A DNA stretch of 20,000 nt from Cladosporium halotolerans (Eukaryota): positions 114,416 to 134,415 of the forward strand of contig NW_027191498.1 in NCBI RefSeq assembly GCF_011745625.1, given 5' to 3'. Below, one piece after another: positions 2,027 to 15,102 of this stretch; the first letter of the stretch is position 1, and the number at the start of each line of letters is the position of its first letter. Both the position numbers and the translations under genes were made by a program. The notes below the pieces were generated by a model, which saw only the letters and a program-made list of their open reading frames with translations, ran no database searches and was not told the DNA's origin.

Positions 2027-3445
2027 TTAAAGGACGTTGCCGGTGACACCATCGGTGACGCCGGTGACCTTGTCAAGGGAGAGGCCCTCGAGGATGTCGC
2101 GCTCGGAAAGGCCGATAGACTTGGTGAGCTCGTCGATGGAGAGGTTCTCCAGCACGTCGCGCTTGGAGAGGTTGAGGGACTTGGTGAGCTCGTCGACGGA
2201 GAGGTTGTCGGTGATGGAGCGCTTGACAATCTTCTCGATGGTGCCCATGACGTCGCTGACATCGACATCAGCGTTGACGGCGGAGCGCCTGACAAGGCCC
2301 TCAACGTCGCTGACGACGCTGCCAGCGGCACCAGAGTTGAGGTCGAGGACGCCGCTGTTCTCGCGCTTGACAAGATCATCAACCTTGTTCATGAGGCCAC
2401 CGACGGTGCCGGAGTTCAGGTCGAGAACATCGGCGTTGTCACGCTCAAGGAGGCCCTCGGCCTTGTCAACAACACCGCCAACGGTGCCGGAGTTCAGGTC
2501 AAGAGCGTCAGAGCTGTCGCGCTCGAGGAGACCCTCGGCCGTGTTAACAACACCGCCGACGGCACCGGAGTCGAGGTCGAGAGCATCGGCGTTGTCACGC
2601 TTGAGGAGACCCTCAGCCTTGTCAACAACACCACCAACGGCGCCGGAGTTCAGGTCAAGAGCATCAGCGTTGTCACGCTCGAGGAGACCCTCGGCCTTGT
2701 CAACAACGCCGCCAACGGCGCCGGAGTTGAGGTCAAGAGCATCAGCGTTGTCACGCTCGAGGAGACCCTCGGCCTTGCCAACGACACCGCCGACGGCACC
2801 AGAGTTGAGGCCGAGCACGTCGCCGTTGTCACGCTTGAGGTTGGTGACACCGAGACCGTTGACAGCGCCGCCAACAGTGCCGGTAACGCTACCGACAGTC
2901 TCGCCGAGACCGAGGTCACGCTGCTTGAGGTTGGTGAGACCGAGGCCGTTGACGGTGTCCTTGACGCCGCCGACAGTCTCGCCAGCCTCGCCGACGACAC
3001 CACGCTTGAGGTTGGTGACGCCAAGGCCGTTGACGGTGCCGGTGGCAGTGCTGACAACGCCGTCAACCGTGCCGCCGAGACCGATGTCGCGCTGCTTCAG
3101 GTTGGTAAGGCCAACGTTGTTGACGGTGTCCTTGGTGTTGTCGACGGTCTGGCCGACGACGCCACGCTTGAGGTTGACACCACCGACGATGCCTTCGGCC
3201 TCATTGACAACGTTGTTGACAACACCGGCCTGGCGCTTGAGGTTGCCGAGGTTGACCTTGTCGACGGTCTCCTGAGCCGTGTTGACAGCGTCGCCGGCAA
3301 GGCCACGCTCGCCAACGACACCCTCGAGGTTGACGAGGCCGGTGACATCGTGGACGGCACCGCCAATGACGCCGCTCTCCTGGCGCTTGGTCGGCAGGGC
3401 CATGGTGGCCGCCGTGAGGGCAAGGGTGATGAAAGCGTACTGCAT
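2027..3445 (-). CDS. Secreted Kex2-processed repeat protein (KEP-type multi-peptide precursor), 472 aa
   Basis: N-terminal signal peptide MQYAFITLALTAATMA followed by LPTKR. Then 18 segments of 20-29 aa, each preceded by KR, RR, ER or KQR. Codon usage is strongly biased (mostly C/T-ending). No introns are needed. Confidence 0.9.
   Translation of the reverse strand: MQYAFITLALTAATMALPTKRQESGVIGGAVHDVTGLVNLEGVVGERGLAGDAVNTAQETVDKVNLGNLKRQAGVVNNVVNEAEGIVGGVNLKRGVVGQTVDNTKDTVNNVGLTNLKQRDIGLGGTVDGVVSTATGTVNGLGVTNLKRGVVGEAGETVGGVKDTVNGLGLTNLKQRDLGLGETVGSVTGTVGGAVNGLGVTNLKRDNGDVLGLNSGAVGGVVGKAEGLLERDNADALDLNSGAVGGVVDKAEGLLERDNADALDLNSGAVGGVVDKAEGLLKRDNADALDLDSGAVGGVVNTAEGLLERDSSDALDLNSGTVGGVVDKAEGLLERDNADVLDLNSGTVGGLMNKVDDLVKRENSGVLDLNSGAAGSVVSDVEGLVRRSAVNADVDVSDVMGTIEKIVKRSITDNLSVDELTKSLNLSKRDVLENLSIDELTKSIGLSERDILEGLSLDKVTGVTDGVTGNVL
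2030..2218 (-). repeat. Coding tandem repeat, about 3 x 60 bp (20 aa, x[I/V]x[D/E]xLSxDx[L/V]T)
   Basis: KEP residues 410-472: SITDNLSVDELTKSLNLSKR / DVLENLSIDELTKSIGLSER / DILEGLSLDKVTG... Confidence 0.85.
2285..2830 (-). repeat. Coding tandem repeat, 7 x 78 bp (26 aa, consensus DNADALDLNSGAVGGVVDKAEGLL[E/K]R)
   Basis: Direct reading of KEP residues 206-387. Central units are near-identical and the end units are more diverged. Confidence 0.95.
2831..3163 (-). repeat. Coding higher-order repeat: two copies of a two-peptide unit (GVVG...LTNLKQR + D[I/L]GLG...NGLGVTNLKR)
   Basis: KEP residues 95-205, segments of 25, 29, 28 and 29 aa in an A-B-A-B arrangement. Confidence 0.85.
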
Positions 3446-4986
3446 TATGTAAAAGAGTGTATGTGTAAAGAGTGTAAGAGTTGGTAAAAGAGAGAAGAAT
3501 TAGACAGTTGCTTGTAGTTGTACGGTGGTGGTGGAAGGAAAACAGCTTTCAGTGAGGGCGACAATCAGTTCATATACGACTGCACCTTGCGGTGATCCTT
3601 GATTGTTGCCCCCTCCGTGAGCCTTCAGGCGCCGACATGGTCGAGTCAGCCTTGAGCCCAGTTGGTCCTGAAGATATGGATTTACCGTTGCAATCTACCA
3701 AAAGATCTACATCCAGGGTGTTGTGGACAGTAATGATCTTCGTGTAACGGTGCTTGACTTGGTCCGTTTACTGCCAAAGCACAGGTTAGCGGAGTATAGT
3801 CAGGTCCTGGTGCTCGAACTAGAGGCACGGTGCGGACCTGGGGGCCTTGCGTGCGGCATTCTCCAATGACATTATTTGTTTGCAACGTCGTCGTAGTTGC
3901 TACTCCTGAAGAACGGTGGACTAGCACGGCTGTGTGGAGCACTGTCGACGAACGATCGCAATTCTCCCACCTTGTCAGGTACAAGGCTAGTGGAGTGAGG
4001 AACATGACTCCAGATTTTGATCGAGCATTGTGTTGAAGTGCGATTTTGATATCTTGGTCCATGTGAGTGCCATGTGAGCGGAACGCAAGGAACTCTTGTC
4101 TAGCTTTGACACAGTCTCGCAGTGTTTGAGACAAATCCCGTTTGTAGCGACATAGAATCATGATCAAGCCAACTTCTTCATGTGCATGGGGTGCCTGACA
4201 GGAGGGATGGTGTGAGCACCATGCTGGGGCCGCGTACCCACTCCGCCCGGGCCGGGTCACTACTAGGGCTTAACCTCAAGTAATCCTGGGGATCTTCGGA
4301 CTGGCGGCCGGCGGTCAGTGTAGTGCCGAAGTTCGGGGTGGTTCGGTCTGTATTGTGCGCTCTGCTGGTAGGAGAACCTGACAGCTATGTGTCATATCGA
4401 ATTCAAGACCTTGTCGAGGGCAGGCGGTCTCTGCGTAGATCCTAGTCTTCCGATACATCCGGGGCAAATCCCAGTACGTAGCCATGTCAGCTCTGCCATG
4501 GAGTACGTAGAACCGACGATGTGGACAAATCCTGGAGCAGTGGATAGCATCCCATGTTGACTGGGCGATACCGCCACAAGCACTTTGCGTCCCCATCTGT
4601 GCGAGTCCTGCGGGCTGAAGATGCAGGTTTCACCAAACGTGTTCGCTGCCACGCTAAGATCTCCAGGGCGAACGGTTTTGACGGCTCAATTTCTCCCAGC
4701 CTTTCAATGATGCCCTTTTGGTGTTGCTGTGCCCCCGAGTTACCTGTCACAAAACCATAGTGTAGGATTCAGCCCTGATAATGTATCTTACGCCTGTTCT
4801 GCATTAGCCATGTGCAGTACTTCGATAGAACCACTCAGCACAATAATTTGTCAATCAACCCTGTGCAACTCACTGCGGACGCTGTCCGTGCCCATGATTC
4901 GTGGCCTGCCAGCGTGGCTGGAGCGTGCAAGCCGTGACACGTCAAAATCTCCGCTGGACGGGCGAAGATCGGCCTCCGGACAATGC

Positions 4987-10718: not shown

Positions 10719-11159
10719 GATGCTGCTCTTGCTCAGCTGCCGAACGAGGGCGTCATGAACGCTCCTAATGACCTACAAGTGAGCGCGGCCGAAGGCTACA
10801 ACTGGTCTCCTCAGCAAGACTCCACGGGTCCTTCTTCTCCTACGCTGAACAATCATGTCCATAGCCATCCGGTCAAAATCGGAGGCGGACAGACGCCCAG
10901 AGCGCCCGTAGTACCTATGCGCACACCTGCCAGTATCGCCGCCACCTCACAGTACATTCCACCAAACGATCTGTCTTCGCCTGGATTGGCTTCTACGGTG
11001 CGAACAGCAGATGCTGGATACAGGTCAAGGCGCGAGCCTACTCCACTTGGCGCTGCGCTGAGAGCCACGGTCAGGGCTGAAGCACCAGATATTGAACAAA
11101 CGACAGGAAGCTCAAACGGTATCGCTGGGAATGATGAATCCATCCAAGGCTGGTTCTAG
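10719..11159 (+). other. Open frame continuing in register after the Spt20 stop (146 codons; internal ATG at 10755); coding status uncertain
   Basis: CAG TAG GAT GCT GCT CTT GCT CAG CTG CCG AAC GAG GGC GTC ATG..., with no stop until TAG at 11157-11159. Confidence 0.4.
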
Positions 11160-11592: not shown

Positions 11593-11598
11593 CACGTG
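11593..11598. promoter_or_regulatory. CACGTG E-box, candidate Pho4/NUC-1/PalcA site upstream of phoD
   Basis: TGCACGTGTT about 380 bp upstream of the phoD ATG. It fits known phosphate regulation, but 6-mers also occur by chance. Confidence 0.35.
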
Positions 11599-11975: not shown

Positions 11976-14281
11976 ATGCGGCTTCAAACCTTGTCCACAG
12001 CGGCCTTCGCTGTTCTCGCCTCTGGAAGCTGGACAAAGGTATGTCAAAGTGGAATTGCTTGGAAAATCGCCATTTGTAACTCTGTTTTAGAACATCAACT
12101 ACCGCTCTCCATCCGAGCACCATCCAGGCCTCGGCGTAGCTCTCCACAAAGTCAACAAACGCAACACGCCCGAGAAGAGCTTCAAACCCTCAGACCTCAG
12201 CTTTACTCATGGAGTAGCGTCTGGTGATCCGTACTCAGACTCTGTGATCCTCTGGACTCGCGTGTCGCCACAGTATGATTCCGTCGACGACAATGGTCCT
12301 GTTACAGGCGATGTCCCGCTCTACTGGCACGGCCCTGAACAGACTGTTTCTACAGCACCAATTTGCGTAGACTACCAAGTCTCTCCTACAAAGGATTTCG
12401 CCCAGGTAGTAGACAGTGGAAAGGCTTACACATCCAGCGATGTGGATTATACGGTGAAAGTCGAAGCCACCGGCTTGGAAGCCTTCACTCGCTACTACTA
12501 TCAGTTCAGTGTTTGCGATAGCAATAACACCAGCCCAATCGGCAGGACGAAGACGTCGCCTGGAGTAAATGACGATGTTAGCCAGGTGAATCTGGCTGTG
12601 TACAGCTGCGCCAATTACCCTTTTGGATACTTCAATGCATACGGAAATCCCGTCCGAAAGGACAGTGTTGACTACGTCGTTCATCTGTAAGTCTTCGTCA
12701 GCCTGAACGTAGCCTCCAATACACACTAACCAGCCCATCAGAGGTGACTACATTTACGAATACCGTGGCAACGGCGACTACGGCAACGGAGCGCCCATCG
12801 GCCGCATCCCCAAACCCGAGCGCGTCATCCACACCCTCTACGACTTCCGCGAACGCTACGCAACCTACCGCAGCGACCTAGACCTCCAGCTGTCCCACCA
12901 AGCCTTCCCCTGGATCCCCACCTGGGACGACCACGAAGTCGCCGACAACACCTACCGCGACGGCGCCGCCGACCTGGCCAACAACGAAGCCTCGTTCATC
13001 AACGACGGCGGCTTCTCCATCGACCAGGTGAAGATGAACGCAGTCCGCGCCTACTTCGAGTGGATGCCGATCCGGCAGGTCGAGATGGACGACAACCTGC
13101 GCATCTGGCGCTCCTTCAGCATCGGCAAGCTGTTCGACCTGATGATGCTCGACACGCGGCAGTACGACCGGTCCATCACCGACCTGTACTGGAACACGGA
13201 CTACATCCACGCGATCGCCGACGACGCCGGGCGCACGATGATGGGCTCGCGGCAGGAAAACTGGCTGTACAACGAGCTCTCCGCCAGCGCCGCGCGCGGC
13301 GCCGCCTGGCGCCTCGTCGGCTCGCAGACCGTCTTCGCGCGCCTCAACCAGTCCATCGTCTACGGCCCCGGCAACCCCTACAACTACGACCAGTGGGACG
13401 GGTACGAGGCGAACCGCAACCGCACGCTGCACCACCTCGCCCGCAACGCCATCGACAACACCATCGTGCTCTCCGGCGACAGCCACGCAAACTGGGTCTC
13501 CAACCTGCTCGGCGACTACGGCGACCCGGGCTCGCACCTCGGCGTCGAATTCGCCGGCACGGCCATCACCTCGCCCCCGCCCGCGGGCGAAGCCTCCGTG
13601 CCCGCCGCCAACCGCGAGAGCGACCTCTTCTCCGCGCACAACGCGCACCTGCACTGGAACGAGATGTTCTACCGGGGCTACTTCGAGCTGCGGATCACGG
13701 CCGACGAGCTGCGCGCGGCCTTCTTCGGCCTCCCGGACATCCGGACGCGCAACGCGCTCGAGATCCCGCTGGCGAACTTCAGCGTGCGCGCGGGCGAGAA
13801 CCGGCTCGCGGAGCCCGTCGGCGGCGGCAGGGCGGAGACGGGCTGCCTGAAGGGCGGCGAGGTCGCGCTGAGCTACCTGACGAACGACACGGAGACGGGG
13901 CAGTGGTTTGTGGGGGAGCCGAGCCAGGTGAGTGCGAGCAACAATGCGTCTGGTGCGTCTGGTGCTGCTGTTGTTGGTGCGGGGACGAATGCGAGCGGCG
14001 GGGTGTGGTAGGCCCCCACCCCTGGGTTCGCTCTGGCCTTGTTCGTTTGCGACAAGACCGTGTGGATAGATGCGTATGGCTACGCTTTCTTTCGACCAAA
14101 CATGTGTTCTCAGAGAATTTCCGGGCTGACGTTTCTGTGAAAGCCTGTTCCTCACGCCCTCTACTGGGTTCTCGCCGCCGGAGCGGGGATCGTGGCCGTG
14201 ACGATCGTGCTCAGCTTTGCCATTACGTGGTCGACGAGGAGAGCGAGATATATGGTTCTTGATGGCGAGGATTCCGGCTAG
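11976..14281 (+). CDS. phoD: PhoD-family alkaline phosphatase. Exons 11976-12038, 12091-12686, 12742-13927, 14144-14281 (660 aa, C-terminal TM helix); an intron-retained form would stop at 14011 (642 aa)
   Basis: Signal peptide, then motifs FTHGVASGDP..VILWTR, GRTKT, AVYSCANY..GYFNAY, HLGDYIYE, WDDHEVADN, LDTRQY, DQWDGY, LSGDSH. Introns 12039-12090 (GTATGT..TAG), 12687-12741 (GTAAGT..CTAAC..CAG) and 13928-14143 (GTGAGT..GCTGAC..AAG) are all phase-consistent. The last exon is less certain than the family call. Confidence 0.92.
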
Positions 14282-15102
14282 AAGGGAGAAGGATGATTGT
14301 GCGTGCACGTGGGGTTTGCCTAAAGAATCTCTCTCGCATTTCACGGAAAAGCATGGGGCGGGGGCGCATGTGTTGCATATGTTATGTAATGTAATGTGTT
14401 ACGACAGTGAATATAATGACTGATGAGTTTGAGCGTTGCTTTTTCCCTGTAGACTCCTTCGCTGCCTGTGTGTAGCATCTTCTCTGTGGTAAATGAAGGA
14501 AGAACGCTTCAGCTTTGGTCAGGTCGAGAGCGCCAGCAACACAATCGAACCATCACGCTTCGACAAGTGTAAGCCTCACTCACTTCTCACTTCAGAAGGC
14601 CTGTCCAAGAACGGCATCTGACCAACACTCAACACGGAATCCTGAAAATCTCGGACCAAAACCAGTGAAAAGAGAAGGAAAAAAAAGTCTTCCTCCATAA
14701 GGTATCTGAACCTGCTCTGACCTGACCCAATCCGATCACCTCTTCTCCCCAGATTCGAGTCCAGACGAGACCCTCCTCCCCTGATCCTCCCCTCATCAAT
14801 CCATCCACCTCCCCAGAACCAAAAAAAAGTCATTCACAAGAAAATGGACCAGACCAGCCAGGCACCCCGTTCCTCCTCTGGCCATCCTCGCATTATCCGA
14901 CCGTTTCTTTCATTCCACACCTCTACCCTGGATGAGCCAAACTCAGTGAATAACGGACCAGCAAGCCATCTCCTCTCACCCTCCTCATAATCCATCATGC
15001 GCAACAACCCCGATCCGCAAGCCAACATCATCGCGCGCTCGCTCGCTAACGTGTAGGATTGGATATTCGCTTCGCTTTTTTTTCCTCCTCCGCAAAGCAA
15101 GG

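Follow-up and report, generated by a model that had tools for sequence, protein, structure and literature searches.

The phoD gene described here, from Cladosporium halotolerans, has a third and last intron that is found both removed and kept in assembled RNA contigs. The explanation that we hold to be rather probable is that the gene is a duplicate PhoD whose gained intron selects either a secreted or a membrane-anchored tail for the enzyme. The terminal exon behind this intron is real and used. The DNA analysed, a stretch of 20,000 nucleotides, is called the window in what follows.

The mechanism that we propose would run as follows. After duplication, a phase-0 intron would have arisen immediately past the final strand of the fold, in place of the ancestral C-terminus that ends in xEDI, xEDL or xEVL. 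This intron would then act as a tail selector, sometimes kept and sometimes removed (as seen at the level of RNA contigs). If kept, it would end the enzyme in a Ser/Gly tail of 27 aa that carries two N-glycosylation sites, leading to release to the wall or medium; if removed, the tail would be a helix of ∼25 aa followed by an RRAR stop transfer, giving a type I membrane protein. The anchored form would have its catalytic domain outside or lumenal and a 16-aa cytosolic tail. Some of the activity would in this way stay at the cell's own membrane while the rest is exported, and the simplest determinant of the split would be the weak, distant AAG acceptor.

Gene structure and transcripts

The gene begins with an ATG at 11976 on the plus strand and contains three introns. 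The features used below are:

11593..11598, no strand: candidate PHO box CACGTG, 383 nt upstream of the ATG
11976..12038, plus strand: coding exon 1, with a signal-peptide-like N-terminus (best 15-residue hydropathy 1.25)
12039..12090, plus strand: intron 1, 52 nt, removed in 4/4 runs
12091..12686, plus strand: exon 2, PhoD_N and the start of the PhoD domain (PF16655, E 1.1e-30)
12687..12741, plus strand: intron 2, 55 nt, removed in 4/4 runs
12742..13927, plus strand: exon 3, PhoD catalytic domain (PF09423, E 9.3e-101; confident fold to ∼614)
13928..14143, plus strand: intron 3, 216 nt, spliced and retained (GCTGAC at 14125-14130, AAG at 14141-14143)
13928..14011, plus strand: tail of the retained form, 27 aa, Ser/Gly/Ala-rich, with two N-x-S sequons (stop at 14009-14011)
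14144..14281, plus strand: terminal coding exon, 45 aa and stop (RNA joint, NCBI model)
14156..14230, plus strand: hydrophobic segment A620-W644, a predicted transmembrane helix (by hydropathy)
14237..14248, plus strand: RRAR (residues 647-650), basic, after the helix (by sequence)
14249..14260, plus strand: YMVL (residues 651-654), fitting YxxPhi, its Tyr 7 residues past W644 (by sequence)
14258..14266, plus strand: Leu-Asp-Gly codons, identical in 9/9 nt to the short terminal exon of locus L012
14385..14417, plus strand: TGTA/AATATA-rich stretch, candidate 3′-end signals (X16 contig ends at 14417)

Intron 3, in phase 0, extends from the donor CAG/GTGAGT at 13928 through the branch site GCTGAC at 14125 to an AAG acceptor ending at 14143, all as located by the original prediction, which had been made from the letters of the DNA alone. 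Its removal yields a 660-aa product ending in the 45 terminal-exon residues, with the hydrophobic stretch, RRAR and YMVL that had been foreseen, and read-through yields a 642-aa product with its stop at 14009-14011, likewise the short-tailed end at 14011 that had been expected. Elsewhere in the window, the introns measured span 52 and 55 nt (phoD) and 57 and 58 nt (the neighbouring Hsp70-like gene), so that the description of this 216-nt intron as about four times longer holds. The exon had also been called hidden, which it is not: the NCBI model P0001 from C. halotolerans, the top match in our protein search, is identical to the 660-aa spliced form. Alternative acceptors at 14113, 14115 and 14351 were rejected, as they have no RNA joint in the runs examined. 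The last belongs to another branch-like site with an AAG acceptor (14320-14360) that resembles the distal acceptor of relatives. RNA structure across intron 3 is nothing unusual, with 190 of 200 shuffles folding equally well or better. The TGTA/AATATA motifs at 14385..14417 are candidate 3′-end signals; the X1 and X17 contigs extend past 14417, to 14508 and 14667.

RNA evidence comes from four runs (X1, X2, X16 and X17) of the 23 listed. It consists of assembled contigs, with only X1 recorded as RNA; these contigs carry no strand, true ratio or growth condition, their depth is a crude measure, and a filter removes part of the records. In all four runs the contigs skip introns 1 and 2, and the depth bins fit zero intron cover. 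The joint 13927^14144, which the original prediction had proposed seeking in RNA, occurs as a contig in two of the four (X1 at depth 27.4, X2 at depth 3.93) and is not among the contig matches listed for X16 and X17. Sequence of intron 3 is present in all four: X1 has the whole intron in a contig over 13898-14171 (depth 15.5), X16 a contig over 13919-14417 (19.6), X17 one over 13898-14667 (19.5), and X2 separate pieces (12.8 over 13903-14008 and 3.6 over 14074-14171). Both RNA forms therefore coexist in X1 and X2, X16 and X17 list the retained form only, and the ratio of spliced to retained varies among the four runs. Because contigs in three of the four runs (X1, X16 and X17) traverse the entire intron into exon 4, the signal is one of retention, not intronic polyadenylation; with the greater depth in the 5′ part of the intron in X2, some 3′ ends may nevertheless lie within it. 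Since RNA of intron 3 is abundant in all four runs while introns 1 and 2 are fully removed, both protein forms are probably made from the one locus.

X16 and X17 lack, at full depth, one base of a T run at 12621 that X1 and X2 keep. This gap would shift the phoD frame and end the protein early; it may be a real allele or a homopolymer or sequencing error, so that retention in these two runs possibly comes from a broken allele or sequencing bias. Their listed pieces contain no substitutions relative to the window. A non-canonical joint of 393 nt in X16, 13525-13919 (CC..AG, with an overlap of 3 nt), lies in GC-rich sequence and is probably an artefact of the library.

Enzyme family and origin of the terminal intron

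Judged by its domains and metal ligands, the protein is a member of the PhoD family, and Fe/Ca phosphoesterase activity is predicted for it. PhoD_N (PF16655) scores 106.5 bits against a cut-off of 30, and PhoD (PF09423) 337.8 bits against a cut-off of 27; the closest solved structure is Bacillus subtilis PhoD, PDB 2YEQ (phmmer E 3.1e-78). According to the accessible text of PMC4223295, the B. subtilis ligands tested by mutation are C180, D207, D265, D266, N271, N272 and D436. Six of these seven are identical here (C180/C194, D207/D222, D265/D282, D266/D283, N272/N289, D436/D466), and the N271 position is Asp (D288), which is invariant in 66 aligned fungal sequences. The AlphaFold model has a mean pLDDT of 67 and is confident to approximately residue 614, just before the donor, which places intron 3 at the end of the fold; residues 615-660 have pLDDT <50 and no helix, so that tail topology gets no support from it either way. 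The N-terminus aligns with the signal-like N-terminus of the family, its best 15-residue value being at the low end and judged by hydropathy only.

The genome holds two further phoD copies. The C57 copy (locus L008) is the canonical orthologue: it is 83% identical to homologue P0005, has no terminal intron and ends in the usual short tail of the family. A hydrophobic C-terminus was found in one of the 120 listed homologues, the next best 19-residue mean being 1.12. Our metagenome scan gave 76 loci, of which seven not covering the C-terminus were left out. Among the remaining 69, a phase-0 GT(A/G)AG(T/C) donor lies behind the fold in all six duplicate-type loci (four distinct sequences) and in none of the 63 others, many of these being near-copies. 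A tree was built from the C-terminal half of 41 rows, leaving out the C1 paralogue; its midpoint root serves the drawing only. All nine rows of the duplicate fall into a single group with support 100/100 and a stem of 0.43, within which subclade A (97/84) unites this gene with Cladosporium fusiforme P0003 and the loci L011 and L015, and subclade B has support 100/98. A convergent Hsp70-like gene is kept next to phoD in all four loci long enough to show synteny. We infer from these comparisons that a phoD duplicate restricted to Cladosporium gained the terminal intron. The alternative that this intron is ancestral in ascomycetes was rejected, as the donor is missing from the canonical paralogue and from the 63 other loci. 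The canonical proteins (L008 and many of P0005-P0120) have a conserved xEDI, xEDL or xEVL end; this end might serve as a signal for retrieval or sorting that the duplicate has lost.

The motif CACGTG occurs upstream of phoD in the window and in 10 of the 11 loci examined, including orthologues of the duplicate clade (e.g. at -334 to -461, counted from the first codon matched). It is a candidate Pho4/NUC-1 site (PHO box). Neither CACGTG nor NUC-1 was found in the accessible text of the review PMC12653687. The motif suggests phosphate control of transcription, not of splicing. That the tail choice itself responds to phosphate is a tentative idea that we consider more improbable than probable by a good deal.

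Alternative tails and their conservation

In the spliced form, RRAR follows the hydrophobic run A620-W644, and the 16 residues beyond the helix are for the most part polar or charged. Within the terminal exon, the Kyte-Doolittle mean over 19 residues reaches 2.49 at best; in non-coding DNA of the window and four orthologous loci, only 4 of 1271 AG dinucleotides are followed by an in-frame stretch reaching 2.4. Transmembrane helix and signal peptide were both judged from hydropathy means, on which the 660-aa form is predicted to be a type I single-pass membrane protein. A GPI anchor requires a hydrophobic stretch at the extreme C-terminus, with no polar tail behind it. This possibility was rejected for both forms, the spliced one having its 16-residue polar tail and the retained tail a hydropathy of only 0.66.

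YMVL lies near the membrane in the short predicted cytosolic tail. The YxxPhi pattern is found by chance in 56 of 1180 overlapping 17-mers from three neighbouring proteins, and it is absent at that place from the short terminal exons of the orthologous loci L011, L012, L013 and L015; a separate hydrophobic exon of two of these loci, described below, has YSPV in L011 and YSPT in L015. According to the accessible part of PMC2133128, a YxxPhi motif need not be predictive by itself. A sorting role of YMVL in the anchored form is conceivable, though we lean against it.

The tail of the retained form looks constrained or selected in the sequences compared. Between X1 and the window, a single strain pair compared post hoc, the retained part is unchanged over its 84 coding nt, and 10 changes (eight substitutions and two one-base gaps) fall in the 132 nt past the retained stop (Fisher p 0.007); in the 138-nt terminal exon a single change is listed, a synonymous one, and the total is at most two (p at most 0.018). 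X2 has an insertion of 3 nt in the retained tail, which keeps the frame. In subclade A the retained tails are Ser/Gly/Asn-rich and all contain sequons (two in the window, two in L011, four in L015 and two in P0003), and at least two sequons were found in 37 of 8131 overlapping stop-free non-coding windows, in a test that was chosen after the tails were seen and concerns four related sequences. The retained tails of L012 and L013 contain no sequons. For the retained form we predict a secretory enzyme that is soluble and glycosylated. Public models of the relatives P0003 and P0122 end in the retained reading. The same ending is found in P0127, a protein of subclade B type whose reading frame spans intron 1; it hints indirectly at retention in other members of the genus. 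P0122, P0123 and P0132, also of subclade B type, have retained readings of moderate hydrophobicity (19-residue means of 1.09-1.79 at best), two of which continue in the same frame into the short final exon.

Leaky splicing offers an obvious null for such observations, since intron retention is given as the commonest alternative splicing event in fungi in the available text of PMC5034255 and PMC7749757. Under this null only the anchored 660-aa form would matter, retention would reflect a long intron with a weak AAG acceptor and the 642-aa product would be tolerated; the spliced arm is indeed the deeper one in X1 (27.4 vs 15.5), the terminal exon is conserved within the species and retention is common in fungi. 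However, X16 and X17 list no form other than the retained one, which in X2 has the greater depth; the coding part of the retained tail is free of the changes that accumulate past its stop, and its sequons recur in sister lineages. We consider this null unlikely, and prefer a selector with two working tails.

In the relatives, the tails behind the same splice point are different. At each of the four distinct orthologous loci, a branch site and an AAG acceptor lie distally, and the exon behind them is short, with 8-10 residues of HWLDGIVW type. The branch-to-acceptor spacing of 18 nt in this gene equals that of L012, whose short exon also shares the Leu-Asp-Gly codons near the end of this gene's exon. 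This is suggestive of an anchor added onto an older last exon, with Leu-Asp-Gly as a possible remnant. L012 and L013 have no anchor exon. L011 (3139-3297) and L015 (3142-3306) have a second, nearer acceptor, followed by a putative Phe/Leu-rich hydrophobic exon of 52-54 aa (hydropathy 2.56 and 3.12) whose stop codon forms part of the distal branch site, making three C-termini possible in this lineage. Codon changes in this exon number 10 synonymous and nine non-synonymous in the sense frame, with 5.4 synonymous expected (P 0.021, permutation). Antisense coding as the source of this signal was rejected, the five other frames having 1-4 synonymous codons vs 10 in the sense frame.

The L011 hydrophobic exon does not align with that of this gene, and basic residues precede the hydrophobic run in the L011/L015 exon whereas they follow it here. 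Joined to a longer protein, the L011/L015 exon was found in none of 1626 candidates, which is weak evidence, and one query gave no match to it in the window's genome. Splice donors normally have a G at position +5. A second intron joining this exon to the short exon was considered but not adopted, as its candidate donors are without that G. For this gene's own exon, a search of 1.84 billion representatives gave a single relative, a same-species fragment from another haplotype that is identical at 44 of 45 residues. Searching with the region of residues 575-660 returned P0001 alone among 559 candidates, and as known orthologues were missed this search is insensitive. Across the duplicate clade, on the sequences at hand, the splice point is conserved and the tails behind it differ by species. 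The original prediction that one locus yields a secreted and a type I membrane form is partly supported, by the two RNA forms and a type-I-like anchor. Conservation of anchor and YxxL is not supported: no relative of the anchor was found outside the species, and relatives in the duplicate clade are without the motif at that place.

Alternatively, the secreted retained form would be the working enzyme, and the anchor exon a recent, species-specific exonisation that is occasionally spliced and has little effect. The anchor's occurrence in one of 120 homologues, the same-species fragment as sole match in 1.84 billion representatives, retention in all four runs and the reading of P0127, with intron 1 removed, through the terminal intron are all in its favour. 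Yet far fewer changes fall in the exon than in the intron beside it, chance seldom places a hydrophobic in-frame exon behind an AG (4/1271), and in a sister lineage there is a hydrophobic exon too, with an excess of synonymous change (10 vs 5.4, P 0.021). We hold this account to be about as improbable as leaky splicing alone.

Cover of intron 3 might instead come from an antisense transcript, such as a long 3′ end of the Hsp70-like gene, or from unprocessed RNA, with no retained mRNA at all. The convergent gene ends ∼1.4 kb away, the contigs have no strand and that of X17 spans 13898 to 14667. But the X1 intron contig is a bubble arm whose ends match the splice sites, the depth in X16 falls to ∼2 at 14408-14511, between both genes, and contigs that retain intron 1 or 2 are absent, which is evidence against DNA or bulk pre-mRNA as the source. 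This explanation we regard as very unlikely, and we keep to retained mRNA from a tail-selecting intron.

Related systems and neighbouring genes

B. subtilis PhoD shares the PhoD_N and PhoD domains with this protein, which differs in the Asp at N271 and in having alternative tails and no capping helix. B. subtilis PhoD is exported by Tat, whereas the putative signal here is of Sec type. That the tails tune the active site and not the location is highly improbable: the C-terminal helix of B. subtilis PhoD covers the active site and the conserved short C-terminus of the fungal family is replaced in the duplicate, but that helix is restricted to some Bacillus species (both statements on the helix from the accessible text of PMC4223295), a 25-residue hydrophobic run with RRAR fits a membrane anchor better, and the AlphaFold model, at low confidence, puts no tail over the site. 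The canonical ascomycete secretory PhoD proteins (L008, P0005-P0120) have the same domains, a signal-like N-terminus and an upstream CACGTG, but no terminal intron and no anchor; they end a few residues past the fold, mostly in xEDI, xEDL or xEVL.

C-terminal anchoring of eukaryotic PhoD proteins has been described elsewhere. The diatom proteins PtPhos5, PtPhos6 and PtPhos7 are PhoD-type with one predicted C-terminal transmembrane helix (PMC7283521, available text), and PtPhos5/6 (same source) and the membrane-bound BdPhoD of Babesia (PMC10907312, available text) were seen in the ER or endomembranes. In these systems secreted and anchored phosphatases are separate genes, the accessible parts of the two papers mentioning no splice switch, whereas here there is one locus; the anchors are likened by architecture, not by homology. 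Immunoglobulin mu makes secreted and membrane forms from one locus by RNA processing, as the accessible text of PMC5928244 relates, and it resembles this gene in that the soluble form ends in intron-encoded sequence and the membrane form uses a downstream transmembrane exon. The immunoglobulin switch, as described there, works by intronic polyadenylation and is developmentally regulated, whereas here the intron is retained; there is no homology.

Splice-dependent gain or loss of transmembrane segments has been predicted genome-wide in fungi, in Sclerotinia (PMC7749757) and Schizophyllum (PMC5034255), with isoforms of Sscle02g014060 predicted to move between secreted and membrane locations. The accessible text of these two papers names no PhoD and describes no conservation of a splice point across species; their gene tables could hold a PhoD case. 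In the accessible literature we found neither a spliced PhoD anchor in fungi nor a description of Cladosporium phoD structure. The arrangement adds to two known kinds, the C-terminally anchored eukaryotic PhoD and the soluble/membrane isoform pair; no new protein family is defined.

A bolder version of the preferred explanation would make the intron an evolvable tail switch, with a selected, glycosylated tailpiece, with anchors arising twice, independently, from non-coding DNA (in this species and in L011/L015) and with a ratio set by phosphate or salt. As a whole we think it rather unlikely; if true, the fungus would choose between shared and private scavenging of phosphate. Retention in fungi is usually hard to separate from noise, and here both RNA forms are accompanied by signs of selection on each of the two tails and by a splice point that the genus has conserved amid changing tails. 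The gene offers a compact, testable case in which splicing would decide whether a nutrient-scavenging enzyme is released or held, and a candidate example of membrane anchors born from intron or 3′ DNA. It is also relevant to annotation, given that the public models P0003 and P0122 end in the retained reading.

Other genes of the window were noted in passing. On the minus strand at 2027-3499 lies a 490-codon frame for a signal-peptide-like protein with ∼15-20 repeats separated by KR/ER pairs and no Pfam match, which resembles Kex2-processed repeat precursors. A 146-codon open frame on the plus strand (10719-11159) follows in frame directly past the TAG of the Spt20 gene, a candidate for readthrough or an alternative 3′ end. 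An S1/P1 nuclease gene on the minus strand (1-757), 11 kb from phoD, encodes a possible further phosphate-scavenging enzyme.
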